From: Glaucostegus cemiculus
Lineage: Eukaryota
Reading direction: 5' to 3'
Length of the DNA: 64,000 nucleotides
NCBI GenBank assembly: GCA_976551045.1
Contig: CDPCPM010000367.1
Span: 4,712,001-4,776,000 of the forward strand
A program made the position numbers and the translations under genes. Below the pieces are notes generated by a model that saw nothing but the letters and a program-made list of their open reading frames with translations, searched no databases and was not told the origin of the DNA. Of this stretch, positions 30,005 to 62,937 are shown piece by piece (the first letter of the stretch is position 1; every line of letters begins with the position of its first letter).

Positions 30005-31255
30005 AAAATAAACAAATTGCTGAAAATACTCAGCAGGTCAGGAAGCGGGAACTCAAATAGGATTAATGTTTGAGGTTGAAGACCCTTCATCAGAACTAGG
30101 AAGGCGACAAATAGAAGCGTGTTAAGTTGCAGGGAGGGTGGGGAAGAAGGGATGTCACTGATGGGGTAAAACTAGAGACACCATGGGGGTAAACTGTAAA
30201 CAAAGTTATCTGGTCAGGGAGTGAATGGGAGCAGTTAAAGAATAAGAGCATAAACAAAAGAACCTAGGCAAAAGAATGTGGGAGTTACAAGATGCAGAGC
30301 AGGTAGACATGCCCAGGAGGTTGCGTTGGGCATGTCCTCCATTCCAGGGGGAAAAAAAGAGGGGAAGAGAAACAAGCTGAGCTAATATTACAGATGGATA
30401 ACTGACGCAGATAGAGAAATCAAGTTACCCGAAGTTGTAGAATTTGGTGTTTGGTCCAAGAGGCTGCAACGTGCTCAGATGGAAGATGAGTTGCTGTTCC
30501 TCGAGCTGACTTTGGCCTTGTTGTAGTAGTACAGGAGGCCACAGATTATTGGGTCAGAGTGAGAGTGGGATAGGGTATTAAAGTGGCAGGCAACAGGAAG
30601 TTTAGTGTGACTCCTGCAGACTGAATAAAGGTGACCTGCATTTGGTTTCTCTGCAAACCTGGTCACCTGATCCACAGTACACTAGATTGGAAGAAGTGCA
30701 AGTGAATCGCTGCTTCACCTGGAAAGACTGCTGGGTGAGGGGAGGGGAAGAAGTGAAAGGACTAGTGTTTCATTGACTGTGTTTATATAGGAAAGTGCCA
30801 TGAGAAAGGGAGTGGTTGTTTGCAATGGAAGAGTGGACTAGGGAGTAGCAAAGGATTTCAATGAGATGCTGAACGGAGAAGAGGGGCTACATGTGTCAAG
30901 TGGTGGAATGTCTTTGGTGGTGGGAATTGTGGAGAGTGATTTGTTGAATGTAGAGGCAAGTGGGGTGGAAGCTGATGATGAGGGGAACTCTATCCTTGTT
31001 CTGTCCTAGAGGAGAGTGGGTGAGAGCTGAGGTGTGGGAAATGGATGAGATGCTGTCAAGGGCCTTGTTAACCATGGGAGAAGGGAAGCCAGGGTTCAGG
31101 AAGAACTGATATGGTCAATGGAGATACGAGATTCTGCACATGCTGGAATCTGGAGTCGCACACAAAATGCTGGTGGAACTCAGCAGGTCAGGCAGCATCT
31201 ATGGAGGGAAATAACCAGTTGAGGTTTTGGGTTAAGACCCTTCAACAGGACTCAA
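30005..31255 (-). mobile_element. Penelope-like element remnant with a second partial pLTR at its 5' side
   Basis: ORF 30475-30675 RFAE...LPVACHFNTLSHSHSD..GLLY (GIY-YIG); terminal repeats at 30005-30100 and 31125-31255. Confidence 0.72.
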
Positions 31256-31916
31256 TGGATAATTGTCTATTTCAAAGCTTTTTCAACATGGGCATTCTTT
31301 GCAGTTTTATTCCATTATATTCCTAAAAATTATTAAACAGATTAAAATGGTTGAACAGCTTGAACTCTTGTAGTTAATTTGACAAAAATGAGAGACACAA
31401 TATCATCAGATCAATGCTGAATGTGGTGTTGTAAACATTGCTAGTTAAAATTCAGCCAGAGCATCTGTAGCACAACTGCTCATTTGTGTCATTGTCTTGC
31501 ATATTTTAGTGGTATGCATTATATATTTCCTCTTTTTTTAAAAAAAAAAGCTTTTTTTAAATTAAGCTATCTTTGACCAACACCATGAACTTAAACTGTT
31601 AAAGTTCTGTCAGCAAAAAAAGTCTGTGAATGTCCATCTCACAGGACTCTTATTAATTCAGCATTATTAGCTATTTCACACCCGAGAACTTAAAGCAATT
31701 ATAATTGTACAGTTGCAAATCATATGAAAAAGAGAAACACTGGATGGAATTTTCATCTTGTTTATTTTAATATCATGCATTTTTGTATAAGGTTACACTT
31801 TTTAAAAGAAGTGTTACATTTAAAATTTAAAGTAGATTATTTTATCTGTATGTAATAGAATAAAAAGACTTGTAAAGATACTTTAAGATTTCTTAAACAG
31901 TTACCTTTTGCTCTAG

Positions 31917-31993
31917 GTTTGCTTTGTCTGCTATGGATATGGAGCAGAGGGACTATGACTCACGAACAGCACTGCACGTAGCAGCTGCTGAAG
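31917..31993 (+). CDS. GLS: Glutaminase KGA exon (exon 17 equivalent)
   Basis: ctctag|G...GAAG|gtacg; [25 protein letters not shown](G); phases fit the neighbouring exons. Confidence 0.96.
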
Positions 31994-32088
31994 GTACGAT
32001 TTGATTTCTAGAAATAGCATAACACTTATACCATGGTAAGGAAGCCAATTAATAATTCAGAGTTTCACAGATTTACTTTCATTTATAG

Positions 32089-32152
32089 GCCATGTGGAGG
32101 TGGTTCGCTTTCTGTTAGAAGCTTGCAAAGTAAATCCGTTCCCTAAAGATAG
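32089..32152 (+). CDS. GLS: Glutaminase KGA exon (exon 18 equivalent)
   Basis: ttatag|GC...GATAG|gtaag; [22 protein letters not shown]. Confidence 0.96.
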
Positions 32153-32688
32153 GTAAGTTGATAATTATTTAACTTAAGCAACCTGCCTAGTCCCATGTAT
32201 TTTGCACCAGAATGAATAAAAGAAATTCTATAAGTATTGGCCTGTAGATTGTCTTGCTCACTTTTTAATAATTGTGATGAAACACTTGTGGCAATTTCTT
32301 GATTAATTCTGTAGTTACCTCCTATAAGTAAAGTATTTATTCAAAGGGGTCATCTGTTAAGCTTATTTTCCTTTAAACTATTTTCCAAATGTATATAAAA
32401 TTTTCTTAATAGAAAACCTTGAGAGAGCAATCCAAGCAATTCTTAAAACAATCTTTGGGATGAGCAGCTCAAAACTAAATACTAAATATGATAATAAACT
32501 GTTCTTCCTCTGTCACATTTTATAAGTAGATTTTTAGTAGATGATTTTGAGGACAACTTTGTTCTTTGGAGGTAAATCCTCCTGAAAAATGAACTTAATG
32601 TTTATAATGCCATTTACAATTTCTTTCAGGCTGTTTAGCAGGAATGTATTGTTTAAGTTGCTTTGTCATTTTTTAAATATAATTTTAG

Positions 32689-32842
32689 GTGGGGCAACAC
32701 ACCAGTGGATGAGGCAATTCACTTTGGCCACCATGATATTGTTACAATCCTTCAAGATTATCAAAACCAGTATATACCTTCAGAAGACTCAAACAATGGG
32801 AAAGAAAAACACTCCAAGGAGAACATAGACAGCATGGTATAG
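32689..32842 (+). CDS. GLS: Glutaminase KGA terminal exon (exon 19 equivalent), coding part
   Basis: ttttag|G TGG...GTA TAG; WGNTPVDEAIHFGHHDIVTILQDYQNQYIPSEDSNNGKEKHSKENIDSMV*. Confidence 0.95.
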
Positions 32843-39721: not shown

Positions 39722-40928
39722 AATGCATAATTACCTTGTATCATTCAATAATGGTTTAGAGATTAACCATTCACAGTATTTAAAAGAGATGCAATGAAAG
39801 TAAAAGCAAAAAAAACAAGATTCTAGAAATACATAGCAGGTCAAGCAGCAACTGCCTGACATTATTTCTAGACATTTTGTTTCAGTTGGATTAATTGTCT
39901 TGTTTTGTACTCCAAGCCCTTTGCAACAAAAGGTTTTTTTTGCCTTCCTGATCTTTCACAAGTCTGGAAACAGCAAGGATTTTAAAATATTGAGGGACCG
40001 GCGAAGACACTGGCATTGAACTCCACACAAACATGCATCTTGTCTCTAGTTTGGACTAACACACACCCCCATTGTTTGAGCCAGGGAAGTGATCTTGTGA
40101 GGTGGAACAGAGGAAACTGGAGGTAGAGAGGAAAAAGGCAATGAACCTGAGCCATCTTCAAAAGGAGGGCTTATGTTGAGACCATGGAAGAGATTCACAT
40201 CTGCTTCATTTAGCTGTTCATATACATCTAACATGAATCATGTTGTCCAGGAATGTAACTAAAACATTACAAACAGGTTTATAGTAACTTTATGCTGAAA
40301 AAGTGCCACTATTTACATTGCAATAAGAGTTTTGCTTGTGTAGCAAGTGCCAAATCATGTCACAACTGTAGATCCATGGGAGTGAAGAGTTCTCTTTGCT
40401 AACTTGGGTAGGCTGTACACAACTGTTCAAAAGAAAAGTGGATACTCATTCAGTAACATTCATAAAACAGCTTTTTAACAAGTTTAAACAGTCAAAATTA
40501 AAACAAATCTACTTGCAGCTAACATTTCCTATTTACTTATCAAGTTTGGCTCTGCTATATGGACTTAGTAGGCAGGCTTTCCAGTCTGAGCACTAGGAAG
40601 CTCGAAGATCACACTGCCCTGTGAAGTCTGAAGTTGTCCACTGGAGTCAGGCAGCAGAACCTGACACCAGCAATGGAAACTACACTGAACCAGTCCTAAT
40701 GAAAGGCAAGTCCTTGTATTCCTATACAATGTGCTATTGATTAATGTTGTTGACTCTTATTGAGAATATCCTTTTCCCTAATAAGCACAAAATCACCAGG
40801 AATTTCAACTGAAAATGGAAGGATTTGTAAGAGGTGTTCCCAGACTAATTTATTTGCATAGGTTTGCATTTGAACTGGATAGTCAATGGAATGATGTATT
40901 TTACTGAAGCTACTTAAAACACTAGGCT

Positions 40929-40973
40929 TTAACAAGTTAAATTATTTTGATGTAAAAGCTGATGATACCATAT
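40929..40973 (-). CDS. STAT1: Candidate STAT1 terminal exon, coding part (uncertain)
   Basis: Strong acceptor tgcttgttttccttcag followed by UTR-like sequence. Phase 0 gives IWYHQLLHQNNLTC*; the +2 frame gives MVSSAFTSK*. Confidence 0.35.
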   Translation of the reverse strand: MWYHQLLHQNNLTC

Positions 40974-41717
40974 CTGAAGGAAAACAAGCAGCAATTCTGG
41001 ACGTTGCTCTATTTGTATTATGGTAATGTCTAGTTTATGTTCCTACTGAATAGTTCACATATACAGAACAAAATGGGCAAAATTTAAACAGGCAAATAAA
41101 TGGCAGGTGAGTTCAGTACTGCACAAAGCAAGAAAGTGAGAGATTACTAGCACCTCATGAATAGTGCTGAAAGAAATCCAAGACTTAAATTTTGATATAC
41201 TCAATGCTTATCCAAGCAACATAGAAATTTACTGGACAGAGAACCTCAATGTACCGTGTCTACACCAGCCAAATAAGGACTATCCAACTTGATCACTTTC
41301 CAACTTTGTTAATCACTGGATGTGGTTGTCTTTTGCAAGGAAAGCAATAAAATGGCCTTAACTTGAGCAAGCAGATCATTTCCAAAAGGCAGTTTGAAAG
41401 TCAAACTACCCTGCCCAGATTAGGATGGCAGATTTATTTTCATGTAGGTCATTAGGGAACTAGATTTTCATTTTACAATTTGGTTTCTGAATTTCAATTA
41501 AATTTCATTTTAGTCTTGATTAATTGAATAATTTCTGCAATTGCTATACTAAGATTTGAATGTGTCCAGATAATTATTCCAGTCCTCTGAATTACTAGTT
41601 CAATTACATAACCTCTTTACTAGCACCCCCCTTGGCATTTTTAGCTTGTGACATTTCAAGGGCAAGTACTTTAAAACAGGTTTTGCTTCCATCAGGCTTT
41701 GGATACAGTATTTGAGA

Positions 41718-42070
41718 TGGGACAACAGTGGCATATCTAGTACTGCTGCCTCAGTGCCAAGGACCCAGGTTCAATCCTGACCTCTAATGCAGTCTATGTA
41801 GAGTTTATACTTTCTCCCTGTGACTGTGATTTTCCCCTAGGTGCTGTGGTTTCCTCCCACATTCTAAAGACTAAGTTTGACATGTTAATTGGCTGCAAAT
41901 ATTTCCATAGTGTGCAAGTGAACAGCAGAACTGGTTGGGGCGGGGGGGGCATGTGGGGTGGAGGGAGTTGTTGAGTATGTGGGGAGAATTAAAAAATGGA
42001 ATTAAATGTGCATTTGGTGTAAATGGGCAGTTGATGTGGTGTTGGTGGGCTTAAGGGCATGCTGTAGGAC
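41718..42070 (+). mobile_element. tRNA-derived V-SINE (older)
   Basis: B box GGTTCAATCC; decayed V-domain ..GGTTTCCTCCCACATTCTAAAGAC; CR1-like 3' end. Confidence 0.75.
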
Positions 42071-42384
42071 TGTTTTAGCATCCACTATTCCAAACTTTCC
42101 ACTAATCCTTTTCACCAGTTATTAAATCTATGCTGTTGGTTTCTCCAAGATTAGAAAAAAAAAACCTTCCCATCCATTGTCTAGGCTTTTGTTAACATTA
42201 GAAACATTTTCCATTCCCAAGAAAGCAGCTTTCCTATCCAATAGCTAGTATTTTCTAAAACTGAAAATCCTTAAATATTTTCTGCAACTCTTGTGATATC
42301 ATATCTTTCCTGTAATATGGGGATCAGAACTATACAATTCTGTAGTTATGTACACTTTTAGTAGTCCATCTTTGTTCTTGCATT

Positions 42385-43430
42385 CTACTAGAGAGGAAAA
42401 CAAAACAATAATCCAAAAAAAGTTACGGAGAAGGATACAGCCAGTTCGCAGGTTAAGGTCCTGAACTGGGGCAAAGCAGATTTTGGAGCCATTAGGTAGG
42501 ATCCTGCAGTGGTTGATTGGGTGAGATTGTTTGCAGGAAGAGAAGCATCTGCCAAATGGGAGGACTTTTTTTTAAAAAGTGTGATGTCAAGGGCCTGCAT
42601 GTTCCTGTTAGGGTGAAGGGAAAGGCTGGCAGGTTTAGGGAACCCTAGTTGATGAAAGATAGACATATTAAAAAAAGCGAGGCATACACTGTGCAGAAGC
42701 AATTACAAACTATTGAATCTCTTGATGACAAGTAGTGTAGGAGTATACTTGAGAGAAGTTAAGAGGGCAAAAAGATGATGCCGAGAAGGATCTGGCAGGC
42801 AAGGTGAAACAAAATCCCAAAGAGATTCTAAAGGAATATGAAGAGTAAAAGGGTGGGTAGGGAGAGAATGGATCCCCTTAAAGATCAGCAATGGCTGTCT
42901 GTGTGTGGAACCAAAGGAAATGGCTGAGATTTCTAATGAATATTTCTGTTCAGGGGATTTTACCAGGGAAGATTTACTAGGATGTTGCCTGGACTTACAA
43001 GGAGAGGTTGTGCAAACTAGGATTTTATTCCCTAGAATGTAGGAGACTGAAGGGTGACCTGATAGGAGGTATACAAGACCCTGAAGGGCATAGACAGGGT
43101 GAAAAGACCAGTCTTTTCTCTCTCCCCCCCCCCCCCCCCCCAGTGGGGGGCAGGGGCCAAAAGTAAGAGTTTAATAGGTTTAAGATTAGAGGTAAGAGAT
43201 TAAAAAGGGACATCAGCTTCATGTAAAGGGTGGTGCACATTTGGAACAAACTGCCAGAAAGTGGTTGAAGCAGGCACATTAGCAATGTTTATAAGCCATC
43301 TAGGTAAGTACATGGATAGGAGATTTAGAGGGCTACAGGCCAAATATGGGCAGATGGGACTAGCTCATTGGGCAACACAGCTGGCAGGGATGAGTGGGCT
43401 GAAGGGCCCGTTTCCATGTTGTATGACTGA
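42385..43430 (+). mobile_element. CR1 LINE remnant (internally deleted)
   Basis: ORF2-like 5' segment joined to TTTACTAGGATGTTGCCTGGA...AGGAGACTGAAGGGTGACCTGATAG and a 3' end GGGCTGAAGGGCCCGTTTCC. Confidence 0.65.
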
Positions 43431-44009
43431 CTTGATGAAGCCTTGATCTAACAGCCTCTCTAATGCACATACTCCAAATGTGGCTCAAGATTTATACCAT
43501 TCACCTCTCCCATCTGTGCACTCCCCAGCCACATTTGCCTCAAATGCATTACCCTGTGCTGCGCCAGACTGAATTTCATTTGCAACTTTGCTGTCTACCT
43601 AACTACTCTATGCTATGTTCCCAAGACTTAGCTTTCTTTCCACACACCCCCCAAACTGCTAATTTTTGCACCATTTGTAAACTTTAGACTTAAATGTAGG
43701 TACTGTGATCAGTCATTAATTGCTAAATCTTTCCATTGAAAGATATTTGTAATTAATCTTTAAATACCAGTCACAAAGATGCCCAATGACTATCCTTTGC
43801 TTTCTGGCACAGCCACACTTTGGATCACATTAGCTACTTGCATCTATTGCTCTGGCGGACCTTGTCTAAACTGATACAAATTACATCCAATCTGCCACCT
43901 CTGAACCTGGATTTACAAACTTAACCAGACAACCTCCCTTTAACTATGATTAATCAACTAGTGCCTTTCTAAATGATAACCATAATCCTAAAACTTTTGT
44001 TATATATCA

Positions 44010-45130
44010 CTGAGGTCAGTTGTTGGCACTGCACTCATCCAAGTATGTGAAGAGTATTCCACCATGCTCTTGACTGATACCTTTATAGATGGTGGACATA
44101 CATTGGGATGGGTCACTTACTACAATGTACCCAGTCTCAGACCTGGTCTTGTAGCATGGCATTTTAGTGGCTGGTCTAGTTGAGTTTGAGTTACTGTCCA
44201 TTGGTGATGACACCTCCCCAATGATATTTGAGGCAAGGGACTTAGTAATATTCTTGAATGTCAAGGGTTGATGGTTAGATTCTATAGGAAGGTGGCCATT
44301 GCCTGGCCTGTGTAGCACAAATGCTATTTGTCACTTGACACCCCATTTCTGGATGTTGTCTTGGTCTTTTGTATGCAGTCATGGACTGCTTCAGTTGCTG
44401 AAGAGTGGGAAATGGAATTGAACATTGCAAACATGCCCTATTCTGGTCTTATGCCTAGTGATGCAACAGCTGAAAATGGTTGAGACCAGGACCCTGTCCT
44501 AAGGAACTCCTTCACAGATGTTCTGGCCCTGGGGTGATTGGCCTCAAATAACCAAACATCTGTTTTGGGGAAGGTACATCTCTAACTACCTGTATTTTTA
44601 ACCACTATGCCATAAGCCAGCATTTGACTGAGTAATGTTAAAAGCAGCCACTTTCACCTCACTAGAATTCAGCTCTTTGATTCATATTTAGACCAAGGCT
44701 ATGATGAGTTCTGGAGCAGAGTGATTCAGTTAGAACCCATTCTGGCTATCAATGATGAAATGCCTTTTGACAGCAGTGGCAAATGACTTTACTAGTGTCT
44801 GAAAACAGAATGATAGTCCTGGAGTAGAAGTCACATATCTGGGCAACTTTCCAAATGGTTGGGTAGATGCTAGTCTTGTAACTGTATTGGAACAGCTTGG
44901 CTAGAAGGCACAACTAGATTTAGAGTGTAGATCATTGGTGCTACAACTGGGATATTGAACAGTTCTGTTACCTTCACTTTATCCAGTAGTCTCAGGAGGA
45001 AGACAAGATTGAGTATATGATACTTGTCTGAATAAGTGCTCAGCACTTGAGCCTAGCACCACATTTGTGCCTATGCTGCTCTCCCCATGCCCTTCTGCAC
45101 TTACTGAATCAGGGTTGAATCCCTGGCTTG
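44010..45130 (-). mobile_element. Old non-LTR retrotransposon RT fragment (clade not assigned)
   Basis: Decayed ESNHQPLTFKNIT...MSTIYK translation typical of a LINE RT C-terminus. Confidence 0.5.
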
Positions 45131-45244
45131 ACAGTAATGCAATTAGTTAATTCAAATTTCACAAGTTGAACTATATATATAGCTATAAAATAAGAGGCAA
45201 GGAGTAGTGGTCAAACTTGAGTGCACAGGTCAGACTATATACCT

Positions 45245-45470
45245 TAGAACAGATACCTACAGCACAATTCAGGCCCTTTGGCCCACAAAGCTGTGCCAAA
45301 CATGTCCCCACACTATTAGGCTTACCCAAAACCTTCTATCTTAGTTACCTCAATGCACCTATCCAACAGTCTCTTGAAAGACCCTAACATATCCACCTCC
45401 ACCATCTCTGGCAGCCCATTCCATGCACTCACCACTGAGTAAAAAACTTACCCCTAACATCACCCCTTGA
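45245..45470 (-). mobile_element. CR1 3'-end fragment, same subfamily as 58948-59920
   Basis: CCTACAGCACAATTCAGGC..GCCCACAAAG.TGTGCC.AACATGTCCC is present in both copies. Confidence 0.7.
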
Positions 45471-46041
45471 TTATCTACTTCTCCTTAAAAGTGAAGATGT
45501 ACTTACTCCAGTGGGCGAATAAGGAGGGATAATTAAAGTCAGTTTTTAAAAAAATATTGAAGGAAATTTCAGTTATGCTACAAAAAAGTGATCTTAAAGT
45601 AACAAGTAAAAGGAATTATTGCATTGCAGGTAGAATATGGGGCAAAGGTTATTTCTCAAAGGATCAGGAAATTCTTAAATCAATTTGTTATGTGACAAAT
45701 TCTAGAATTGTGAAGTGCTGAATTTCACAATAGGTATCTTTCAGTTTGAATGAATACAAGTAAGGACATTTGGCAAACAAAACTCTATGATAGAGATGTA
45801 GTTATTCAATGCATCATCCTGCATCAGCTTTATTTGTTAAAGCAGGAATTAAGACCAGAGCAAAAGCTGAAGGCTTATTTTTATATTAGGCATCTACATA
45901 TTACACTGAGGCAAGTTATACTCTGGCAAATGTTTACTGGACAAGGACATTAATGTTTACACTATACAATAATGGAGTACACCAGATCAACAAATGAATG
46001 CAGTTTACAAGAACTGCAGCCACTTAGATTCCAAAACCTAC

Positions 46042-46144
46042 CACTGTATCAATATCTGAAGAACTTAAGTGTCGTGTCAATTCACCAAAATCCTCCACGG
46101 ACATGGGTAGAAGATGTTCTGTTGTCTGCAGTCTGGAAGGATGA
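46042..46144 (-). CDS. STAT1: STAT1 exon 24 equivalent (transactivation domain)
   Basis: HPSRLQTTEHLLPMSVEDFGELTRHLSSSDIDTV; 103 nt, tttctag| and |gtaggt flanks. Confidence 0.93.
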
Positions 46145-47818
46145 CTAGAAAGTATTTTTAAAACAAAAAAAAAATACAGTTTCACTTGTCTTGGTGGTTA
46201 TGGGTGCCAATACAAATCTCAAAACAAGCATACAGCCAATATAGTACTTGATAGAAGTGTAGTTACTGCTAGAAGGAAACACATGCTGTTTGTGGAACTT
46301 GCTGTGTGCAACAAGTTAAAATGACAATCTGTTACAATGATGTAATTCCCAAGTATAGTCAGCCATGAAACCAGCAAGAAGTTCCCTGCCATGGGCCCTT
46401 CCTGATTTATCAATGAAAAAACTATCAAGGCTGGTTTGGTTATGGGGCTTTCCTCTTGACCAAAATCTAATACATTCAGCTGAAAACTAAGTATTAAAAA
46501 TCATTTAAGTTACCCAATGTTTTATTACAATTTAGTTGTAAATACTGTCAAATTAGTTCAATTCTGGGCTGTAAGTTTAAAAAGGTAAGCAATACCATTA
46601 AAAACCATTAATAGTATAAACTTGTGGATTGGTAAACAGACAAGCAATTGATTTAACTATCAAACAGTCCTTACATATCCCAATATGAAAGATTTTTTAA
46701 AAATTAAATCAATCCCACAGTTTCCAATCCAATTACTCCTGCATTATTGTGTAAAGTTTTGGAGCCAGCTTTCATTCCAATGTTTCTTTGGAGAAGTTAT
46801 TCTTCCCACTAGCCAGAAGTATGCCATGACCTAGTCTGGTTGCAAACACAGACACCTCAAACAAAAACCCCTTAAAGTTTCCTTTGAGTTATTACCTACC
46901 TAATTCATCCCAAATAAATTGTAGGCATCACAGCTCAAAATGGTGTACTAGAAATTGCGGTGAGCACTTTCGTCTAGAGGGGTTAAGATTTAAACTTCCA
47001 AAAACAAGTTAAATAAGCTGCAGGCAAATCCCCTGAATGTGATGGACTCATGAGATTTTAAACACGTAGTTATAGAAAGTGGCTCCATTGGCTTTAATCT
47101 TCCAGAGTTGTCCACATTCTAGAATTACCCTATTAGTTGTTTCAATGGCTAAAACGAGCTTTTTTTTGCTTTAGACCATAATTCCTTCTGCCATTTAAAG
47201 TCTCTATCTTTTTATCAGCACTAGCTGCCTTCCTCTTGGTCCTTGGCATACTATTTCCCATTCTGACAATGGTCACTGACTGGTTTTGTTCTCCATAGAC
47301 ATTAATTCCTTTTCTCCACTCTCTTCAGTGATCAAAATAAAGTTAGTTACAATGTTGAATGCAAATCCTGAATAAATACAGCAGCAACATTTGCAGTGCT
47401 GAGCTTATCTTGGGTATATTTAACCTTCTGTATTATTGAGTCAATATTAAGTTATTGGAACACAATATATCAAATACCCACAACCTAAAGTTATTTTCAC
47501 AACTTCCAGATATCTACTTCAAGTGACCATCTTTGGTGTAAAACAAAGAGCTTTATAGTCTCATTGTAGAATGTTACATTTTTCTTGTGTCTATAATAGT
47601 AGCAAGATCAGTTACATTTATTTATAAACTTACTGTATTAAATTACAGATAAAGAGCAAGCTTAAAACTTCAACAATCACCAGCCAATTACTAAAGAGGT
47701 GTTCTTTTTCCAGTATCTTGCATTTAGAACTTGTACTATTTGGCTACAATTATGAACACCGTATACATAATCTGCATTTAAACAAGGAAAAAAAAGCAGA
47801 GTTAACAAGGTTACTCAC

Positions 47819-47894
47819 ACTTCAGAAACAGAAATTAGTTCAGTCTTTATGTATCCACTTGTCTTGGCATCATCCACGTCCATAGGCTCTGAAG
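47819..47894 (-). CDS. STAT1: STAT1 exon 23 equivalent (Y701 phospho-site)
   Basis: SEPMDVDDAKTSGYIKTELISVSE(V). GYIKTELISV identifies STAT1 rather than STAT4, and the SUMO motif IKTE is intact. Confidence 0.96.
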
Positions 47895-49117
47895 CTAAGA
47901 AAGAAGTGAAACAAAGGATTTGTGTATGATTAATGAGAATTTCCAATTTAACTGGTATAGCACTTGAGGTACAGGTTCAACCTACTGCTTCTAGTACATG
48001 ATTATTCATCCATCTTGCTGTTGAGTAAATAGCATGTTTAAGTATAATAGTACTTATTGCAAGTGACTAGCCAGACCTAAAGCCTGCCTGCAGCTTTAAA
48101 GTAGTCTATTGTAACTGCAGTGGATATGGTGTTATTCTGCAGTTCAGTGACGCAACAAACACTGACACGGGAGATGGCAGTGGACAATCTACTGTGCATA
48201 GTCAGCCCAAAGGAGTAGGCAAACTCTTCAAATGCAGTGGGAGCAAATATGCCTGGTGATTTATATAGGACTTTAGCCCCTGAAGACTTTTATGCTGCAA
48301 TATGTTCAGAAATGATCATGGCTGAATGGATCCTCACCAAGTGCAATAAGAAATTCTGCAACTGTTCAATGCATCACATCTCCATTGCATCACCTACTGA
48401 CAATTAATTAGTACTCCCGAAATTCATGGGCTCACCTCCACCTTGCTTAGCAGTGCCATAAACCTCATCTGCCAGCTTGCTTACAGTGGCAGCCATTCAA
48501 ACTGGACAGCCACATCAAAAAGCACTACTCAGACAGGATCAAACCAGCACTAGTCAAGTTTAAGGAGTTTAATGTCAGGAGGAATGTGTGGGATGGGATT
48601 TCCAATAAGCATCATGGAGGAAAGTACATCTGAATCATTTTACAGGGACAAGAACAATTTTAGTGCATGATCAGTGGGAAGAAGGAGAAGAATGGTGCTT
48701 TCCCCTGAAAATATGCCAAGATGTTCAATAATTTAAAAAAAATCCAAAATGGAAAAGCTAGGGAATACAAGTGCCACATGAAGATATTCTTGGTCTAAAA
48801 TCTTATGCTCAGTCATGACATGAGTACTTTTTGCTTTGTGGAGATTTTTTTTTAGCACAAATCCAGAAGTAAAATTTTATAACAAATTCTTTGATCCACA
48901 ATTGGTAATGGTTGATTTTTCAGTGAGACTTTTTACATCCAATACAACACAGGAGTTAGTGTTGGTCAATTCCCATTAATGTTGTTCTATACAGAAACTA
49001 ATGTTATATAATATTTAGTTCTGATTCTCAGTCCAATGTCATTAAATACAAATACATTTGTGTTAAAGTTTACAAAAAGAGAAATTGGTCTCAAGATGTG
49101 GATTTATTTATACTTAC

Positions 49118-49306
49118 GATCTTTTGGCCTGGAGTAATACTTCCCAAATGCTTGATCTTTGGGGATCTCAGGATACAAATACTTCAATGGATTTTCTGGA
49201 ATATTCTCAGCTGCCATTACTTTGTAATTGCGAATGATATCTGGGAAGGTGACAGCCGACAGTTGATGCTTGGTGTATGGTTCTACAGAGTGAAACTGAG
49301 CCTCAG
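49118..49306 (-). CDS. STAT1: STAT1 exon 22 equivalent (SH2 C-half)
   Basis: [62 protein letters not shown]; 189 nt. Confidence 0.96.
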
Positions 49307-51254
49307 CTGGGGAGAGAAATAATAAAATAAATCAGATGGCAGCAAATTTATACAAAAAAGGCAGATATCCAATAGGTAAACAATGGGCCAGTATGAAGCC
49401 AGTAGGATTTCAGTGCATGAGTATTTTTAAATAAAATTCCTTAAAAGTATTCTCCAAATTCAAAAATCCTCAAAACTCATACATTGAACATTGATAATTC
49501 AATCCCTATTTTTAAAGTCACTGTACCTCTGAACTCAACTATAGCTTTTCCTTTCCCCAAATATAGGTTCTTGAATAATTCAGTATCATTTTGATTTAAT
49601 TTTTTTTTAACTATCTAGAACCAACTGAATACAACAAGGGAAAAAGCTGGTGTTCAAATTGGAGTGTAGTTGCCTTTGTGTATGAGGTCCTCAGTTCTTA
49701 AGATTTAAGAATACAATCATTCAGTATCATTTGGATTTTTTAAAAATCCAATGCAAATCTGGAAGTAATTATAAATTTTCTCTTCTGCTTTGTAATATAG
49801 CCCTCATAAATGTTGCCCATTTTTCTTGTGGTAAAGGATGCAATCTGCACCTGGAGAAGCCCATTCTCACTAAAGCCGGGACTGGCAGGTATATCCAAAT
49901 GCTGATCGTGGTGTTCCTCCACTCTTACATTCATGGGATAAAGGGTCAAGGTCAAAAGTCAAAGTTGAGTTTATTATTATTATATGCACAAGTGCAATGA
50001 AAAAAACCTTACCAGCAGTAGTATTACAGGTACCATTTTCTGCAACCTTTTACAAAGCTCAGTGAAAATCCAGTAGTTTATAATCAGTGTCCCAGCCCAA
50101 TATGCAACCTTTCAAGTGCATCACAAGGAAAGCAACTGCATAGGTGATAAATGGACTCTAACAAGCAGTAAATGGTAAATAAAAAGGAACTTGGGTCTTT
50201 AATTATTTTCATAGGTTTTATTTCAACTCCAGGATCATTTTTTACTGCTTCTCTATATGCCCTAGTCCTCACTTAGTGTTCAAAACAAGATTTATTTTGT
50301 GGAAACCAGTCGAGAAAATTCTCCACAGTAATAGGACCTTTCATCACTAAAAGGATTAAAAATATTTACTCAGTCATGTCCCCAGACAGCTGAAACCATC
50401 AGTATCTTTTCTCCCCCTTGAAAAAATACAACTACATTTATGCAAAGCTACTGAACACATTACACACTTCAAAAATGTAATAAGTCAATCAAGTAGTTAA
50501 AACAAAACAGAGTACTATTTTATTTTTCTTCACCCATAAGATAATGGATCTATGGAGTTTTCTACCCAAGGAGGGCTGTGGAGGCCCAAGCATGGAATAT
50601 ATTCAACACAGGAATGATTTGGATACAGAGGTGGGGTGGGGGTGGAAATATCAAAGAACATGTCATTAGTGTTGGAAAGTGGTGTTGACACAAGATCTTT
50701 AACTTTACTGAATGGTGGAGCAGAGGAGGAGGACCAAAATCACCCTGTCCTACCTCAAGGTTTGTTTTTACATTCTTAATCTAATAACCCATTTAAAAAA
50801 AAGTTAAAATTACAAAATTCTATCCAGAAGCTGTCAGTTGAATCTATTGGAACTTCAGCATTCCCATCTACCCACAGTAACCTTTCTGCCCATTTTACTG
50901 TCTGGTTTAATATTAAAGACTCTTCCTCAAAAAGGTGGTAGAAACAGAGTTCCAAAGACTCATGCCAGTCATAGCAATAGAAAAAATTAATAGAAACTCA
51001 CCTCTGTCCTAAATGGCAAACACTTAATTTTTTTTGGAAATGCAACCCCATATTCTGTCCCAAGGAGGAAACATCATCATGTCTACATGTCAAAAACCTG
51101 AGGATCTTTTCTTTAAATCAAATCTCCTCACTCTTGTAACTAGATTGCCCATCTTTCCCTGGAAGACAGCCTTCCTATTCCAGATAGGAGTCTAGTAAAC
51201 CTTCACTGAAGTACAGCCAATGGATGAATATTCTCCATTAAATAAGGAGACCAA

Positions 51255-51769
51255 TGACTAAAGGAGATCTCTGATACCTTTGAGGGTGGCAGATACTTCA
51301 GAACAAAGCAGTGGAGCTCAGTTTGTTGCTGACCTGTAGAAGGAGACAAGTATTTGTGTGGACAGCCATGATTCGAGCACCTTTCGGGGTGAGCAGGATA
51401 CAGTGGAGTAGTCACTGATGAGTAGATGCTGAGGTGTCGTTTGGGTTCCAAAGTGGAACATATGGATTTCATAATTACTCTCTATGTTCTCTCTACATCT
51501 ATATTTTGTCTTCAGTCAATGGTTGTTGAAGAAGCCTTGGATCACATTTCACCTTATGGCTTGCCAAACTGAATTTCGAGGATTATTCCTGGACTTGGAG
51601 TTTGGGAGTTTACCACACACGAGTTTAGTTTTTGGGGCTAATGTTTAAAATTCTTACTTCTAACATTCTTACTTTTATTTTTCTTATTGTTAATAACTAC
51701 TTATGATAAAGCAGTCTTTAAACACTGATACATGACTCAGAGTGTTTCTTTTACTGCTGGTTCATAACA
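51255..51769 (+). mobile_element. Possible solo LTR inserted in an antisense CR1 remnant
   Basis: Distinct composition, a GATAAA-like signal near the 3' end, and a terminus CTGCTGGTTCATAACA typical of LTR ends (..CA). The TSD is not clear. Confidence 0.35.
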
Positions 51770-51953
51770 CAATAAACAATACTGCTGTTAGCTTTCCTAA
51801 ATACTGTTCATACCTGCATACTAACCCTTTTAAATCATGCATTTGGATATCCATATCTCAAGTTGAAAGTAGTTTAGGAACCTTTGCTCAATCCCATATT
51901 GGGCTAACTCAATAAATCCACTTAATTATACACTGGAGTATTAAGTATTATTA

Positions 51954-52268
<315 letters not shown>

Positions 52269-52296
52269 TTATGATGTTCAGTGCTGTTATTCTTAC

Positions 52297-52391
52297 CCAT
52301 CATTCCAAAGAGGCAGAAGATGCTTTTTGATTAACTCCAAAATCCCTTCAATCCAGAGCCAGAATGAGAAAGGTTTTTCATTCATATTCTC
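52297..52391 (-). CDS. STAT1: STAT1 exon 20 equivalent
   Basis: [31 protein letters not shown](G); 95 nt; uses an AAG acceptor. Confidence 0.95.
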
Positions 52392-52480
52392 CTTAAGTAA
52401 TAATAGAATACAAATAAAAATACAAGAAATGCAAAATTGAGATTCCATGTTACTAACTTTAAGAGGTGTTAACTGGTTAC

Positions 52481-52533
52481 CTTGCAGAATCTTGACCATG
52501 GAATTGAATTCTCATTGAAACAATTATTTGGAC
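52481..52533 (-). CDS. STAT1: STAT1 exon 19 equivalent
   Basis: [17 protein letters not shown]; 53 nt. Confidence 0.92.
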
Positions 52534-53371
52534 CTAAAGACAGAGACAAATTTGAGGTTTAACCATTTTCCCTCTAAAGCTTAAAGAGGAATATGCTTGA
52601 AAAGTTCTTGCATTCTATGATTTACAGTCCTAATTGTATACTTAAAAGATGCATTAATGATTTTTTTTTTAGATCCATTTAAAACACTTTGAAATTTAAA
52701 GAATACACAGCTGCAAGTTGACATAAGACAGGAGGGGAAGAATAATAAATATTAAGTGCAGCAACACAACATGCTGGAGAAACTCAGCAGGTCAGGCAAC
52801 ATCTATGGGAGGTAAATTAAATATTAATTCACCCAACTGAATATTTCAGTGTTGATCATTAACATTAAATCAGCACAAGCACAATATTCATGATCATGCA
52901 CAAAGATGTAGGCAATGCACAATTACTAATGTTTTCAGTATTTATGATGAAGATGTGGTAGCCCATCTTTTCTAAGCTTGTACATCAATTACAAAATGGA
53001 GTGTTTAAATATCTTTGAATACAAGAGGAAGTGTTGTTAGAGTTCTTCAAATATGCATCCTTTGTGAATGCCAAACAACTGTAGTGAAATGACATGTCTA
53101 ACTGGAGTTGGAGTCTTAATATCTTCAAATGTTTTGGTTCAGTTATCCCAAAGAACAAATGCACCTCCACAATACAATACATTTGGAATCTATATGGAAG
53201 AGGAATCCCTTCAAATCAATGGCTATCACATCTCCAAGAGTAATTCAGAGGAATGGTGGATGATTTCATTCCTCCATCAGGTCATATGAATTACAGACCA
53301 TCTCAACAAAAAACAATGCTTTTTCCCCCCCCCACTCCTATACCTTTAATTGTCGAATCTCAAGATCTTAC

Positions 53372-53507
53372 CTAACAACTTTTCTCCAAGCATGTTGAGT
53401 TGTTCATTGTTCAGCCCTCGCTTGGTGACAGAGGAGAACTGCCAACTCAATACCTCAGAGAGCTGATTCCATGTGGCAGCTGGGGGGTTGGAGAAAAAAC
53501 CCAAGGT
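53372..53507 (-). CDS. STAT1: STAT1 exon 18 equivalent (linker domain)
   Basis: [45 protein letters not shown](G); 136 nt. Confidence 0.96.
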
Positions 53508-54025
53508 CTGAGGAAGAAACAAAAATTGAAGTCGATAACATACTTTATGATGACTGTTTAAATTTGACCATTTAAAAAAATGTTACACAATTTCTAGTTT
53601 ATCACTGATATTAATATTCCTTAAGCCAAACGGCTATTATTTCAACCATATTTAAAAATGTACATCAGAGTTTTAAAAAATACCCAGTTAAAGGCATTAC
53701 AGAGGAAGATTTACTGGATGGCAGTGAGGAGGGACATGGGTTCCTGATTTAATAGTGTATATTGAAACAAAAGCACAAATCAGATTATAAAACAGCCAAT
53801 ATTCAAATTTCCATCAACTTCACATTAAAAGGTGTCTAGAATAAAATATTGACTTAACCTCAAATTTATTTATTTTTCTATTGAGTTGGTGCACCTCACC
53901 TATTGACCAAATATTATACTTTGGATATACAAGCGTTTCAAATTTCTTGTCCACTACTAAAGGACAAAGCTCCACATTGCCAATACAAAGACAGATAGGT
54001 TTACCCATCACTTAAATTCAACCTA

Positions 54026-54211
<186 letters not shown>

Positions 54212-54899
54212 TTAATCCTAGACTACGAGTTACGCAGTTACACTCAAAGTGAAGAGGTAATGCAACAAAAAGGCAGCCATGTGACCACAATACAGAGTAC
54301 AAATCCCATTTTTCAGCTCTTGCATTCTTTCCAAGTCTCTATTTGCAAATGCTTTAATCTTATGCTCCAAAACAAATTTATAGCAAAATACTTAATAATA
54401 AATGCACTTCTCTACATCACAGCCACAGCATATTGGTGGTAATGAGAATGAATGGAGGGTGGTGAATGAGGTGCCAATCAAGTGGGATACATTATCCCAG
54501 ATAGCATCAGGCTTCTGAGTGTTGTTTGAGCTAAACTCATCCAGGAAAGAGGATTAAATTCTCTGTCCCAGTAAAAGCTGAAAAGCCTTTTCAATAAAAA
54601 TATAACCTCCTGTTTTTAAGGTTCTTTATTTTTAAGCCCATGTCAATGACCTGAAAAAAATCCCAATTTAGTTTCACAGCTCTGATTTTATATTCATCGT
54701 TTCCATATACAAAAAGAAGCCAAAAAGGATTCCAATTTAACATCTTTTAAACCAGTGACCAACTTCCATGGATGTAAACCTAACATCCCTTGGTTTCTCC
54801 ATTCTATTAAAAATGCTGGCATTTAGAGTAGAATTTCCTTCACAATGAACTACATCGTAGAACAGAGGGAAAACAGAGGGAATAGGAGTACAAGCATAT

Positions 54900-55795
54900 T
54901 GTTCCCTGAAAGTGGCATCACAGGAAGACAGGGTAGTGAAGGTAGCTTTTGGCATGCTGGTCTTCATCAATCAAGTTAGTATTGGTATATCACTGTCACT
55001 TGTACCAAGGTACAGTGAAAAGTTTGTCTTACAAACAGACCGTACAGGTCAATTCATTACACAGTGCAGTTACATTGAGTCAGTACAGAGTGCATTGATG
55101 TAGTACAGGTAAAAAACAATAACAGTACAGAGTAAAGTGTCACAGCTACAGAGAAAGTGCAGTGCAATAAGGTGCAAGGTCACAGCAAGGTAGGATATTA
55201 TGCTGTAGTTGTACAAGATATTGTTGAGACAGCATTTGGAATACATTGTTCAATTTTATTCACCCTGCTATTGGAAAGATGCCATTAAGCTGGGAAGAAT
55301 GCACAGGAGATTTAGAAGGATGTTGCCAGGACTTGAGGGACTGAGTTATGGAGAGGAGTTGAGTAGGTTGGAACTTTCTTTAGAGTGTTGGAAAATGAGG
55401 GTTGATGTTATAGAGGTGTATAAAAATCACAAGGTCATAGATAGGGTCAATGAGCACAGCTTACCCCCACCTCCCCCCCCCCCCACAAGAGTTTTGGAAA
55501 TCAAGAACTAGAGGGCATATGTTGAAGGTGAGCGAGGAGGGATTTAATAGGAACTAGAGGGCCAAGCTTGTCATCCGGAGAATGGTCAGTATACAGAATG
55601 AGCTGCTAGAAGTGGTTGAGGCAGTTACACTAACATTTGAGAAAGGTACCTGGACAGGTAAATGGATAGGGAAAAAAAAACTTAGAGGGATATGGACCAA
55701 ACTTGGGCAAATGTGACTAGCTTAGATAGGAATCTTGGTCAGCATGGACTAGTTGGGGTGAAGGATCTGCTTCCATGCTGTATGGGTCTATTGGT
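54900..55795 (+). mobile_element. CR1 LINE 3' fragment
   Basis: ORF 55209 YKILLRQHLEYIVQFYSPCYWKD...RMLPGLEGLSYGEELSRL is the CR1 ORF2 C-terminus. Confidence 0.8.
54978..55193 (-). mobile_element. ~215-bp retroposon, copy B
   Basis: Shares the antisense pseudo-ORF RYSEK.VLQTDRTGQFITQCSYI with copy A; interrupts a CR1 fragment. Confidence 0.75.
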
Positions 55796-56099
55796 TTACT
55801 CCACTACTCCAGCTCTTGCACATTCCCCCCTTACATATCAACTCTCATGCCCTTGTCAAAATATAAATGTTCCCTACCTTTAGATACTTTCTAGGACTTC
55901 CTTTCCCATATGGGAAAGATTTAGACAATGCTAAAAACCATGCACAAGATTCTGCTTTATCCAACTCAGGAGGACCACAATCCATCACCTTGCAACACAT
56001 TGTACAGTGAAAGTCCACATTTCCAGAATCTACTGCAATCGTTCATGACATATCTTTGAAGTCAACATACAAGAGTGCACCCGTGTACATGCTCCTTAC

Positions 56100-56183
56100 C
56101 TCTAGATCAATTGGCACATTCTGGTGACAGAACTGGGTCTCAAAGCTGATGGAATGAAGTTCCTCAGTTACAATGAGAGGTCC
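56100..56183 (-). CDS. STAT1: STAT1 exon 16 equivalent
   Basis: [28 protein letters not shown]; 84 nt. Confidence 0.96.
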
Positions 56184-56469
56184 CTGGTTGAACATGTACA
56201 GAAAAAAGTTTAGCTGATGATTTAAACACAATATCAATCTTTACCTGAAGTAATATTGACATGATGATTTTGATTTCAATACACTGGGGTCTAAAACCTC
56301 TCCCCCAACCCGCAAAAATCAACAGGGAACTGAAAGATATGCAGTTATAAAATAAGAAAGATATTCTGGAACAGAGGGCAAGGAGTGTCCATGTGTCGAA
56401 TTAGTTTTGAAGTCTGAGGTTATACCAGCTGAAGTTATGTTGAGAGGCACTCCACAATCTGACACTTAC

Positions 56470-56511
56470 TTCTGTTGTTCTGCTTCCTGTATTTTTCTGT
56501 TCCTTCAGTTG
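56470..56511 (-). CDS. STAT1: STAT1 exon 15 equivalent
   Basis: QLKEQKNTGSRTTE; 42 nt; keeps the K410/K413 equivalents. Confidence 0.93.
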
Positions 56512-56544
56512 CTGCAATATAAAAAAAACACCATATTGGATTCA

Positions 56545-56835
<291 letters not shown>

Positions 56836-56848
56836 TTATACTACTTAC

Positions 56849-56878
56849 CCTTTTACAGAACTCTTTTCAGTGACATCT
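56849..56878 (-). CDS. STAT1: STAT1 exon 13 equivalent (30-nt exon)
   Basis: DVTEKSSVK(G); AG/GT flanks, phase 2-2. Confidence 0.9.
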
Positions 56879-58620
56879 CTGAAAAAGAACACAATAGTAT
56901 AATTTAAGAGATAAAAGCAGGAATAGAGAGTTTGGCTCTTTGTGACTAATTTCACCATTCAATTATCTCAGCAACAGCTTACTGAACAAACCACACATCT
57001 TTCAGTTCCCTAATACCTTAGTCTCTAATCTTATTCAAGACAAACTGATTAGATGCTGAGGCTCTACAGCCCTCATGGATAGAGAAGTCCAAAAAATCGT
57101 CAGCCCTCTTTGCAAAGAAGATTTCTTAGCTAGACTCCAAAATGGCTGGTCCCTTATTTTAGACCCTGGTTCTAAACACCCGAGCCAGGAGAAACATTAT
57201 CCCAGTGCTCTTCTAATCTTCGATAGCCCAGACTACTTAAGTGTCTCCTCAAACAATAAATCCACCCCAGAAATCCCACTGGCAAAATTAACTGAGGTCC
57301 CTCTTACCACAAGTATCTCCTTCCTTAGGTGGAGCAAACAGATCTGCACAAAATATTCTAGCTACAGGTATCAAAGCCTTAATTGGACCAAGACAGATTC
57401 TTCACATGAAGGGTCTCGACCAAAAAAAAAAGTCAATGGTTTGCTTCCCTCAATAGATGCTGCCTAACCTGCTGAGTTCCTTCAGTGTTTTGTGTGGTTG
57501 TGACAATTGGACCAAGTAGCCTTCTATTTTTTCCATTTAGGTTCTCTTGCAATAAAAGGGAAGTGTACTATACGCCTTCCTAGTTATTAATATTCAGGTA
57601 TTACAAGCAATCAGATGTGTACAAAGGGCAGCCAAATCCCTCTAAACACCAACACTGTCTCCATTTAAAATACTTCTCTTACTGAAGTAGATGACCTCCC
57701 ATTTTGCACATGTACTCCATCTGCCCTGCCCTCACTCTACATTCCCCTGAAGGCTCCAAATTCTTTTGACAACCTATATACCCATTCAAGTTTTGCATCT
57801 CAGTTTAATGATGCATTAAACTCAAGATCCTCAAAAATTGACAGCCCCAACACCAATCTCTGTGGTACTCCACTGGTCACAGTCCCAACCCAAACAGGAC
57901 CCATTTATTCCTCCTCTCCATTACCCAATCCTCAATATAAATCAAGGTCCCACATTCCCCTAATCCTGTGAGCTCTAGTTTTGTTTAATTTTTTTTTTAA
58001 AAAAAGAAACACCTTATCAAAACATTCCAAAACTTCAGATAGATATCAAATGGTTTCTACTTCCTCATTCTGCTAGTTATGATCTTGAAAAACAAAAGTT
58101 GGTCAGTATGTGGAACTCACTGCCAGCAGAGGTTGAGAGGTTGGTGGAAGGAGATAAAATTAGGGACATTTGAGAGACTTAGCAACATGAACGATAGAGA
58201 AATGGGAGGGAAGGGTTAACATTTGGGAGGGAAAGGTTAATTAGATATTACAGCAGGATAAGATGTCAGCACAACATTGTGGGCCAAAGGACCTGTGCAT
58301 GTAGTAATGTTCTATAAATGTTATTTTCAGAAATCCCTTTTAGTTCAGCCCAATCCTACTATTTTCCAGTACTCCATTACTATTAAAATGTGAAGTGTTA
58401 ACTTAACAGATTTAATATGGGCAGAATACACCAAAACTCTCATCCTCATCACCTGGTCAAATTTTGAAACTAATACACAATTTTACTAACATTGCTGAAA
58501 CATGGTATGTACCACACAATTAAAATAACTGGTCATAGTAATTTTAACACATTATCTTCAACTAAGATAACTTCTATAAATTTGTCATGAAACACATGGA
58601 AATAACATACATCTACTTAC

Positions 58621-58680
58621 TTGTCAAAGGATGCTTTTACACGCAGCTGGTAGTTTAATTCTGGCAGTCTTACCAATAGC
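58621..58680 (-). CDS. STAT1: STAT1 exon 12 equivalent
   Basis: LLVRLPELNYQLRVKASFD(K); 60 nt. Confidence 0.95.
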
Positions 58681-58947
58681 CTGTAATGAAATAACAAGAG
58701 ATGCAAAATAACACGTTTTATGGTAGACTGAAAAAGGAATCAGGTCTACATGAATAATTTCATTATGTCACTCATTAGTAGCAGTTTTGATTCTTGCCAT
58801 TTGTCATTGCACAGGAATTCAAATTAAGCCATTTCATAATGAAACAGGGATTCTAGGACAATGTCTGGTCTCCACCAGATAATGCACCATGACAATGTAA
58901 AGCAAGCCTCCAAGTTCTCAGTTAAGAAAAAAGGCGCAGAAGCAGTT

Positions 58948-59920
58948 AAACATGGAAAACCTACAGCACAATTCAGGCTCTTCAGCCCACAAAGTTGTGC
59001 CGAACATGTCCCTACCTTAGAATTACTAGGCTTACCCACAGCCCTCTATTTTTCTAAGCTCCATGTACTTATCCAAAAGTCTCTTAAAAGACCCTGTTGT
59101 ATCTGCCTCCACCACTGTTGCCAGCAGTTCCATGCACTCACCACTGGGTCTAAAAAAACAACTTACCCCTGACATCTCCTCTGTACCTACTCCCCAGTAT
59201 CTTAAACCTGTGTTCTCTTGTGTCAACCATTTCAGCCCAGGGAAAAAGCCACCAACTATCCACATGATTAATGCCTCTCATCATCTTAAACACCTCTATC
59301 AAGTCACCTCTCAACCTTCGTCACACTAAGGAGAAAAGGCAGAGTTCACTCAAACTGTTTTCATAAGGCATGATCCCCAATCCAGGCAACATCCCTTTCT
59401 ATGGCTTCCACATGTTTCCTGTGGAGAGGTAACCAGAACTGAGCACAGTACTCCAAGTGGGGTCTGACCAGGGTCCTATATAGCTGCAACATTACCTCTC
59501 AGCTCCCAAGTTCAATTCCACAATTGATGAAGGACAATACACTGTATGCCTTCTTAACCAGAGTCAACCTGTGCAGCTGCTTTCAGCATCTTATGGACTC
59601 TGACCTCAAGATCCCTCTGATCCTCCACACTGCCAAAAGTCCTACCATTAATATGATATTCTTCCATCATATTTGAAATGAATCATTTCACACTTATTTG
59701 GGTTGAACACCACCTGCCATTTCTCAGCCCGGTTTTGCATCCTATCTATGTCCCGCTGTAACCTCCGACAGCCCGCCACATTATCCACACCTCCAACCTT
59801 TGTCATCAACAAACTTACTAACCCATCCCTCCATTTCCTCATCCAGGTCATATATCATGAAAAGCAAGTGTCCCAGAACAGATCCCTGAGGCACACCACT
59901 AGTTACTGACTTCCATGCAC
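58948..59920 (-). mobile_element. CR1 LINE 3' fragment
   Basis: ORF 59648-59851 TKVGGV...LQRDIDRMQNRAEKWQVVFNPNKCEMIHF; the 3' end is shared with 45245-45470. Confidence 0.8.
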
Positions 59921-61130
59921 AATTATTTTAAAAACATTCCTAAGTCACTGCTTCTTGCGCACCAAATCTCTTATGTCACATTAATAGTACATTCAAAATA
60001 TCAGAAAATGATCACAAGATCTTGTAAATTTTAAAGGTTCCTTTAAAGCCTATCATCTTCAACCAGTTCCATCTGGTCATTGCTTTCACCACTTGAATAC
60101 CTACCAAATGCTGTTTAATGATTGATAAATGTTAGAGCTAGTTCCTCAACTTGTATTCAATATAATCACATTTAACAGTATACTTCCCAAATTAATTCAA
60201 ACAGAGCACCAAGTCACTTTGACACTGGTGCAGATGACAAAAAAACTTGCCTCTTTGTCCAAGCTTAATGGTATAAAAAAAAGAGGAAAACATGGTACAA
60301 AAGCAGAACTCAAGAGGGAATTTCAAAGCTTTGGAGCCATCAGTATAGAACTTCTAAAGTCAATGAAGCATAAAACACCAGAACTGGAGATTAGCCAAGA
60401 TCGAAAAGAAAGTTAAGAGACGAGAGATGGGCAGGGCAAGGCCCTGGGATTTGAACACATGAAAATTTTAAAACCTGGAGGGAGAAGAGAGCAGAATTTG
60501 TTCAAATCGGAGCCAAATTAGGTCAGCTAGAATGAAGTGCAATACAAATACCAGACTTGCTCCAAGTTAGGACACAAGTAGTTGTCGAATGGATGACCCA
60601 AGGCCAGCTAACACACTTGAATAGTCAAATCTGAGGGGGTAACAGGCATGGGTGAAGGTTTCAGTCTGGTTTAGTCTCAGACAGTGGCCAGTAGGAGGGA
60701 TGGAGTCAGTAGCTAGGGAATAGTGTGTGGTGGAGGGAAGAAACCAAAGACAATGGCTTTAATAGGTAGGATGAGAAACAAGCAGTCTGACAGAAGATGG
60801 TGAGGCAGAGTTAGATGCTACCAGCATTCATAGATAAACATATACTGTGTTTGCAGATAACATCACTGAAATGCAGAATAAAGGGAAATAAGGGAAGAGC
60901 AAAGACATACATATATATTCTTCACCAGAGGTTAATTAAGAATAGACTAAGACAGTTTGACCAAATTACTAACAATGAAGAAAAAAAAGTTTCTCCCCAC
61001 CCCAAAGTTTTATGGCAAGTAATGCTAGTTTTAAATGTTAATAATAAAACACCACACCATCATCCTTCTGGGAAACTTAAGTAGTTTTCATAAGGTGAAT
61101 ATTATGAGAAAAAGGAACAAAAATAACTCA

Positions 61131-61256
<126 letters not shown>

Positions 61257-61714: not shown

Positions 61715-61891
<177 letters not shown>

Positions 61892-62785: not shown

Positions 62786-62937
62786 CACTGTTGTAGCTGG
62801 TCAAGACAGGTGTTAGGAGGTCCTCCAATGCATGCAATTTGTTGTCTCCGTTTCCATTCCACTAACTCTTCACTGATCAAGAGGCCTTCAATTTGTTCCA
62901 CTTCATTCAGTAGGCAGGCAGTTTCATTGATTACTTC
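62786..62937 (-). CDS. STAT1: STAT1 exon (human exon 9 equivalent, coiled-coil)
   Basis: [50 protein letters not shown](W); 152 nt, AG/GT flanks. Confidence 0.95.

Follow-up and report, generated by a model that had tools for sequence, protein, structure and literature searches.

The window (the whole 64,000-nucleotide stretch of Glaucostegus cemiculus DNA that we analyzed) contains STAT1 exons on the reverse strand and, tail to tail with them, the 3' exons of GLS on the forward strand (Table 1). The 17 STAT1 exons comprise 542 codons without an internal stop; all of the acceptors are AG and all of the donors are GT. Y701, the IKTE motif, and the SH2 sequence FLLRFSES (which includes the SH2 arginine) are intact, in agreement with the original prediction, which had described the rest of the gene as undamaged. 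The protein is 535/542 identical to the STAT1 of the sawfish Pristis pectinata, 92-97% identical to that of other batoids, and 89-92% identical to that of sharks, which places the animal among the batoids close to the sawfishes (Rhinopristiformes). Its residue numbering is the same as in human STAT1 (Y701, S727). All of its best matches are STAT1 proteins, and the branching of the tree agrees with the species groups. (Only STAT1 rows were included in the trees, without STAT2, STAT3, or STAT4 and without the window's own protein.) The full set of STAT domains was found on P0001, which is 98.7% identical to the window's protein. Together with the adjoining GLS, the domains and best matches confirm the initial identification of the gene as STAT1. 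We take GLS to be the usual neighbor of STAT1 in other vertebrates. The elements in the window are those of an ordinary, intact STAT1 that carries a valine at position 728.

Table 1. STAT1 and neighboring features in the window
Feature	Position	Strand	Basis or remark
STAT1, 17 coding exons (residues 212-753) within the window; the 5' part is outside, past the window's end	40399..62937	-	All AG/GT, open frame; 535/542 residues identical to Pristis pectinata XP_051885779.1
Last coding exon (LCTAYPS-stop)	40399..40422	-	Exon model
S727 exon, 103 nt (exon 24 of the original prediction); STAT1 TAZ2-binding domain	46042..46144	-	AG/GT; PF12162, E 1e-09; predicted helix begins at Val728
Codon 728, GTG = Val replacing the Pro of the PMSP motif	46096..46098	-	Window sequence; aligned to the Pro of the human STAT1 TAD (PDB 2KA6 chain B) and of Heptranchias
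Pro725-Met726-Ser727 (CCC ATG TCC)	46099..46107	-	Invariant in 19/19 Val-bearing species
Y701/IKTE exon; donor read-through gives ...SEV-stop, a STAT1-beta-type end	47819..47894	-	Compare beta-type shark isoforms P0138 and P0139
GLS 3' exons, tail to tail with STAT1 (synteny marker)	5812..32839	+	GAC-type last exon within 5812-5988, KGA-type within 32657-32839; stop-to-stop frames

The 3' end of GLS (5812-5988 and 28934-32839, forward strand) includes last exons of both the GAC type and the KGA type, so this ray appears to have both splice forms. The last intron of STAT1 is filled with high-copy repeats (window ~41650-45700), and there are near-duplicate stretches at ~24 kb and ~26 kb (window ~23900-26700) that resemble the remains of mobile elements.

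The ends of STAT1 vary among isoforms and relatives. Reading through the donor after the Y701 exon (47818-47814, reverse strand) gives Val and a stop, and the shark models P0138 and P0139 end likewise. From this shared beta-type end, the beta isoform appears to be as ancient as the jawed vertebrates. Reading through the donor of the S727 exon (46041-46024, reverse strand) gives VGFGI and a stop, which matches a Mobula isoform (P0010). In Narcine and in one Mobula (P0002, P0006, and P0011), the tail of STAT1 is 10 residues longer; the short form occurs in the other Mobula. The longer tail resembles what the last exon of the window (40422-40360, reverse strand) encodes in a shifted frame, which suggests a one-base frameshift in these lineages or in their assemblies.

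PMSP is regarded as a conserved feature of STAT1, STAT3, and STAT4 (as described in excerpts of PMC3580287 and PMC10556531). In the window, positions 46110-46090 of the reverse strand read CTA CCC ATG TCC GTG GAG GAT, or L-P-M-S-V-E-D, so the claim that this STAT1 has PMSV instead of PMSP is correct. The exon is in frame with the Y701 exon and with the last exon, and it matches the Pfam family STAT1_TAZ2bind; in the alignment to the human transactivation domain, a proline stands opposite the valine. Of the features of a PMSP site, the window retains the proline at -2, the methionine at -1, and the serine acceptor, and lacks the proline at +1. The main form of the window's STAT1 has no other S/T-P site after Y701.

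We compared STAT1 across sharks, rays, chimaera, and bony vertebrates, as the original prediction had proposed. Of the 200 proteins that we retrieved, 41 were assigned to the chondrichthyans from their source name or cluster (for the main shark cluster, 15 of 23 members were covered). PMSV is present in 35 of these 41 proteins and PMSP in 4; the remaining 2 are isoforms of the beta type, which stop short of the S727 exon. The other 159 proteins (the largest search covered 120 of 933 matches, mainly from turtles and birds with few teleosts) comprise 144 with PMSP, 7 with PLSP, and 8 without the region, so that the proline is present in all 151 that bear the motif. (Lepisosteus STAT1, P0025 and P0087, is PLSP and retains the proline at +1.) A search of 50% representatives gave five short matches, all with the proline.

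Besides the window, 19 further species of sharks and rays were sampled, and 18 of them have Val728. They comprise all nine batoids (Pristis, Narcine, Hypanus, Hemitrygon, two Mobula, Rhinoraja, Leucoraja, and Amblyraja) and all nine galeomorph sharks (Chiloscyllium, Hemiscyllium, Stegostoma, Rhincodon, Heterodontus, Carcharodon, Cetorhinus, Mustelus, and XP_038645062, which the tree places beside Mustelus). Pro728 was found in Heptranchias perlo (Squalomorphii), in the chimaera Callorhinchus milii, and in a second protein of the Callorhinchus cluster. Heptranchias, with a predicted protein, is the one squalomorph in the sample, and none of 20 matches to shorter proteins was recognizably from a shark. 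Group membership is from NCBI taxonomy for Heptranchias, Heterodontus francisci, and Pristis; the remaining elasmobranchs were placed by the tree or in the groups to which we take them to belong. Judged from these sequences, Val728 is an old trait that is common to nearly all of the elasmobranchs sampled, with Heptranchias as the exception, which the original prediction had missed.

Within the 19 Val-bearing species, V728 and the preceding P-M-S are invariant, as are L723, L724, M726, F731, L734, and L738; 13 of 34 columns vary (residues 713-746). The residue at +2 is always acidic (E or D), and at +3 there is an aspartate in 15 species, a glutamate in one, and a valine in three skates. Further along (739-744; 46063-46049, reverse strand), batoids other than skates have S-S-S-[D/E]-I-D and most sharks have S-P-S-E-I-D, so the second S-P is lost in these batoids; by eye, their acidic context at 739-744 fits CK2 better than S727 does. 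Residue 749 (40416-40414, reverse strand) is Thr in the batoids sampled and Ser in the sharks sampled. Human Thr749 is a site of IKK-beta (according to excerpts of PMC11046697), and its homology to residue 749 of the window is putative.

How many times the valine arose depends on the placement of Heptranchias. With position 728 masked (19 rows, LG+G4), Heptranchias joins the galeomorphs in the best tree (support 77/78) and two changes are needed. A tree constrained to unite all of the Val carriers is worse by 8.5 log-likelihood units, and a single origin is not rejected (p-AU 0.158); a 30-row mixture tree likewise left the fork between one and two origins unsettled. If sharks form one clade, as in NCBI taxonomy, the valine was either gained twice or it reverted in Heptranchias, with a two-base change each time. 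Protein data alone do not decide between two gains and one gain with a reversion.

To predict how kinases respond to the valine, we used the scaled specificity matrices of Johnson and colleagues (2023; PMC9876800, Supplementary Table 2) and scored 12 of the 303 kinases. The matrices describe human kinases acting on short peptides, and the raw scores are uncalibrated and not comparable across kinases. Changing Pro to Val at +1 lowers the score by 10.9-fold for CDK8, 12.8-fold for CDK19, 26-fold for p38a, 29-fold for CDK9, and 41-fold for ERK2. The original prediction held that this STAT1 is uncoupled from proline-directed kinases. The predicted drop of 11- to 41-fold supports that view in part, but "uncoupled" is too strong: for CDK8 and CDK19, Val is the best of the 19 non-proline residues at +1 (1.00 and 0.92, respectively), and the proline at -2, which both kinases favor (4.6 and 5.2), is kept. 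These are the only two of the ten proline-directed kinases examined for which Val ranks first. For CDK9, CDK17, CDK18, p38a, p38b, ERK2, ERK5, and ERK7, Val scores 0.22-0.43 and either Gly or Ala is higher. Given this tolerance of Val by CDK8 and CDK19, weak phosphorylation by these Mediator kinases may persist.

We lean, at somewhat better than even confidence, towards the explanation that this is a natural and partly S727A-like STAT1, in which Ser727 is predicted to be a much poorer target of CDK8/19 and of MAP kinases and whose effect would be a gene-selective retuning. The dimerization driven by Y701, DNA binding, and coactivator binding would be unchanged, because the six hydrophobic residues that are invariant (L723, L724, M726, F731, L734, and L738) are kept and a helix is predicted from 728. 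The response to IFN-gamma would then be retuned gene by gene and not lost. In mice, CDK8 is the kinase that phosphorylates S727 in response to IFN-gamma, acting on promoter-bound STAT1, and p38 is the kinase for LPS and stress; of 256 induced mouse genes, S727A lowered 61, raised 48, and left 147 unchanged (both from excerpts of PMC3580287). In keeping with the favored explanation, sites that depend on CDK8/19 are enriched for S/T-P (PMC10415139).

The serine itself would be retained at least in part as a helix cap. A single-sequence model of the exon's peptide, computed without a partner, has a helix at 728-740 with Ser727 immediately before it (mean pLDDT 74.6, pTM 0.33), so Ser727 may be kept as a cap. 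If so, its conservation is weaker proof of phosphorylation; the invariant Ser727 fits continued phosphorylation and helix capping equally well. On the other side, CDK8 meets STAT1 on promoters, and recruitment may outweigh the fit to the motif. CDK8 has non-proline substrates (cyclin H and histone H3, as given in excerpts of PMC3580287), and the log2 scores of the window's peptide for CDK8, CDK19, and p38a stay positive.

Several other readings of the valine deserve consideration. That it is an artefact of assembly, a pseudogene, or an unused exon is barely credible: Val728 is in 18 other species with separate assemblies, and the window's gene has an open frame, canonical splice sites, and GLS beside it. 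We therefore reject sequencing error and a pseudogene, given the valine across species and the intact 17-exon frame, and the original argument that a base-call error was unlikely is borne out by the 35 of 41 chondrichthyan proteins with Val. As to use of the exon, the Val-bearing proteins P0152 and P0153 of the skate cluster are full-length (750-752 amino acids) and come from contigs of only 2,440-3,260 nt, which can hold the frame only if it is spliced, so we infer that the S727 exon is present in skate mRNA. We also doubt very strongly that proline-directed control moved to another S-P of the same domain. S739-P740 is found in seven of nine galeomorph species and in three skates (which also have S719-P720), but it is ancestral, being present in chimaera, coelacanth, and turtle, so it is no gain, and it lacks a proline at -2. 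There is no S/T-P after Y701 in the window, Pristis, Hypanus, Hemitrygon, both Mobula, Chiloscyllium, or one further shark, and Narcine's lies only within its longer tail; for the window's lineage, relocation is rejected on this ground. A proline at +1 hinders CK2, and the original prediction suggested that S-V-E-D had become an acidophilic, CK2-like site. S-x-x-D in 15 and S-x-x-E in one of the 19 Val-bearing species would suit this idea, to which we nevertheless give very little credence. Val and Pro at +1 are alike for CK2A1 (0.25 and 0.23, versus 9.1 for Asp) and CK2A2 (0.27 for both), so the change is only 1.07-fold for CK2A1. At +3, where the window has D730, CK2 scores 2.8 for D versus 9.1 for E. 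The log2 score of CK2A1 is -0.71 for the window's peptide, below the +0.85 of the mammal-type Pro peptide, and -3.54 for the skate peptide. Moreover, the acid at +3 is ancestral, as it is already present in STAT1 with the proline (S-P-E-E or S-P-E-D), and three skate species have lost it. With no gain from the valine and an ancestral acid that skates lack, we reject the CK2 switch.

Two further readings keep Ser727 as a phosphorylation site. A switch to the CaMKII or IKK/TBK1 families, which disfavor proline at +1 and accept a hydrophobic residue there, is in our judgment decidedly unlikely. Pro to Val raises the score by 4.8- to 5.9-fold for CAMK2B/D and by 5.2- to 6.0-fold for IKKA, IKKB, IKKE, and TBK1, each of the 19 Val-bearing species retains the acid at +2 that CaMKII favors, and IKK-beta already targets STAT1 at Thr749 (again from excerpts of PMC11046697). 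However, the totals for the window's peptide are about neutral for CaMKII, IKK, and TBK1 (log2 scores of -1.3 to +0.5), the peptide lacks the arginine at -3 that would suit CaMKII, and TBK1 and IKKE prefer Leu (3.0-3.4) over Val (~1.0) at +1. Alternatively, Val728 might preserve phosphorylation by promoter-bound CDK8/19 and bar the MAP kinases, which would separate the inputs of interferon and of stress. This is conceivable but on balance improbable. In its favor are the ranking of Val at +1, seen for CDK8 and CDK19 only, the invariant Pro at -2 and Met at -1, and the scores for the window's peptide, for which CDK8 (log2 score 1.19) and CDK19 (1.06) are the two highest of the 12 kinases, on raw values that are uncalibrated across kinases. 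Against it, the predicted drop for CDK8/19 is still 11- to 13-fold, and the raw score of p38a is near that of CDK8 on the window's peptide (0.87 vs. 1.19) and above it on the skate peptide (1.67 vs. 1.34). The match was also spotted after the fact and is expected about 1 in 19 times by chance. If it held, which we think unlikely, most sharks and all rays would have a separation-of-function STAT1, with the CDK8/19 input kept and the p38/ERK input cut, arising by two origins (in batoids and galeomorphs) or by one reversion (in Hexanchiformes), with a two-base change each time; and P728V in a mammal would split the inputs to S727, which S727A cannot do.

The window's STAT1 can be set beside several known systems. 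Vertebrate STAT1-alpha (human transactivation domain, PDB 2KA6 chain B; full length, 8YYU) has the same domains, Y701, IKTE, number for S727, TAZ2-binding domain, and beta-type read-through end; the window differs in having Val728 for Pro and in lacking S/T-P after Y701 in the main form. RefSeq STAT1 from rays and galeomorphs (for example, Pristis pectinata XP_051885779.1 and Carcharodon carcharias XP_041057163.1) also has PMSV, and the site is identical. The orthologs from Heptranchias perlo (XP_067843854.1) and Callorhinchus milii (XP_042192024.1) keep PMSP; from -4 to +4 around Ser727, Heptranchias is the same as the window except at +1. The Stat1 S727A knock-in mouse (excerpts of PMC3580287 and PMC3748339) resembles the elasmobranch form in having an intact gene and, by prediction for the latter, lower phosphorylation of S727. 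In contrast, the mouse allele is engineered and removes the serine, whereas the elasmobranch form keeps it, so residual phosphorylation or phosphorylation by other kinases is possible.

In the literature that we searched, from which figures and most subscription journals lay outside the scope, we found no mention of an elasmobranch STAT1 without this proline, nor is there such a remark in the available parts of four papers on the evolution of STATs or the phosphorylation of STAT1 (PMC3670131, PMC10556531, PMC2855521, and PMC11046697). The valine is already visible in public RefSeq gene models from 18 species, and the variant affects one residue of a protein that is well known.

Heptranchias and Carcharodon offer a natural Pro/Val pair, as their peptides differ only at +1 across positions -5 to +4, and Heptranchias is a clean control species. 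If the predicted difference in selectivity is true, P728V would be a tool for splitting CDK8 from p38 signaling to STAT1. NK cells of mice become more cytotoxic when S727 phosphorylation is lost (excerpts of PMC3748339); any bearing of this effect on the immunity of sharks is speculation by analogy. STAT1 without the proline at +1 has been retained from the time when batoids and galeomorphs each arose, if not from earlier. Because elasmobranchs have kept such a STAT1, the canonical site would be either dispensable in these animals or wired differently.
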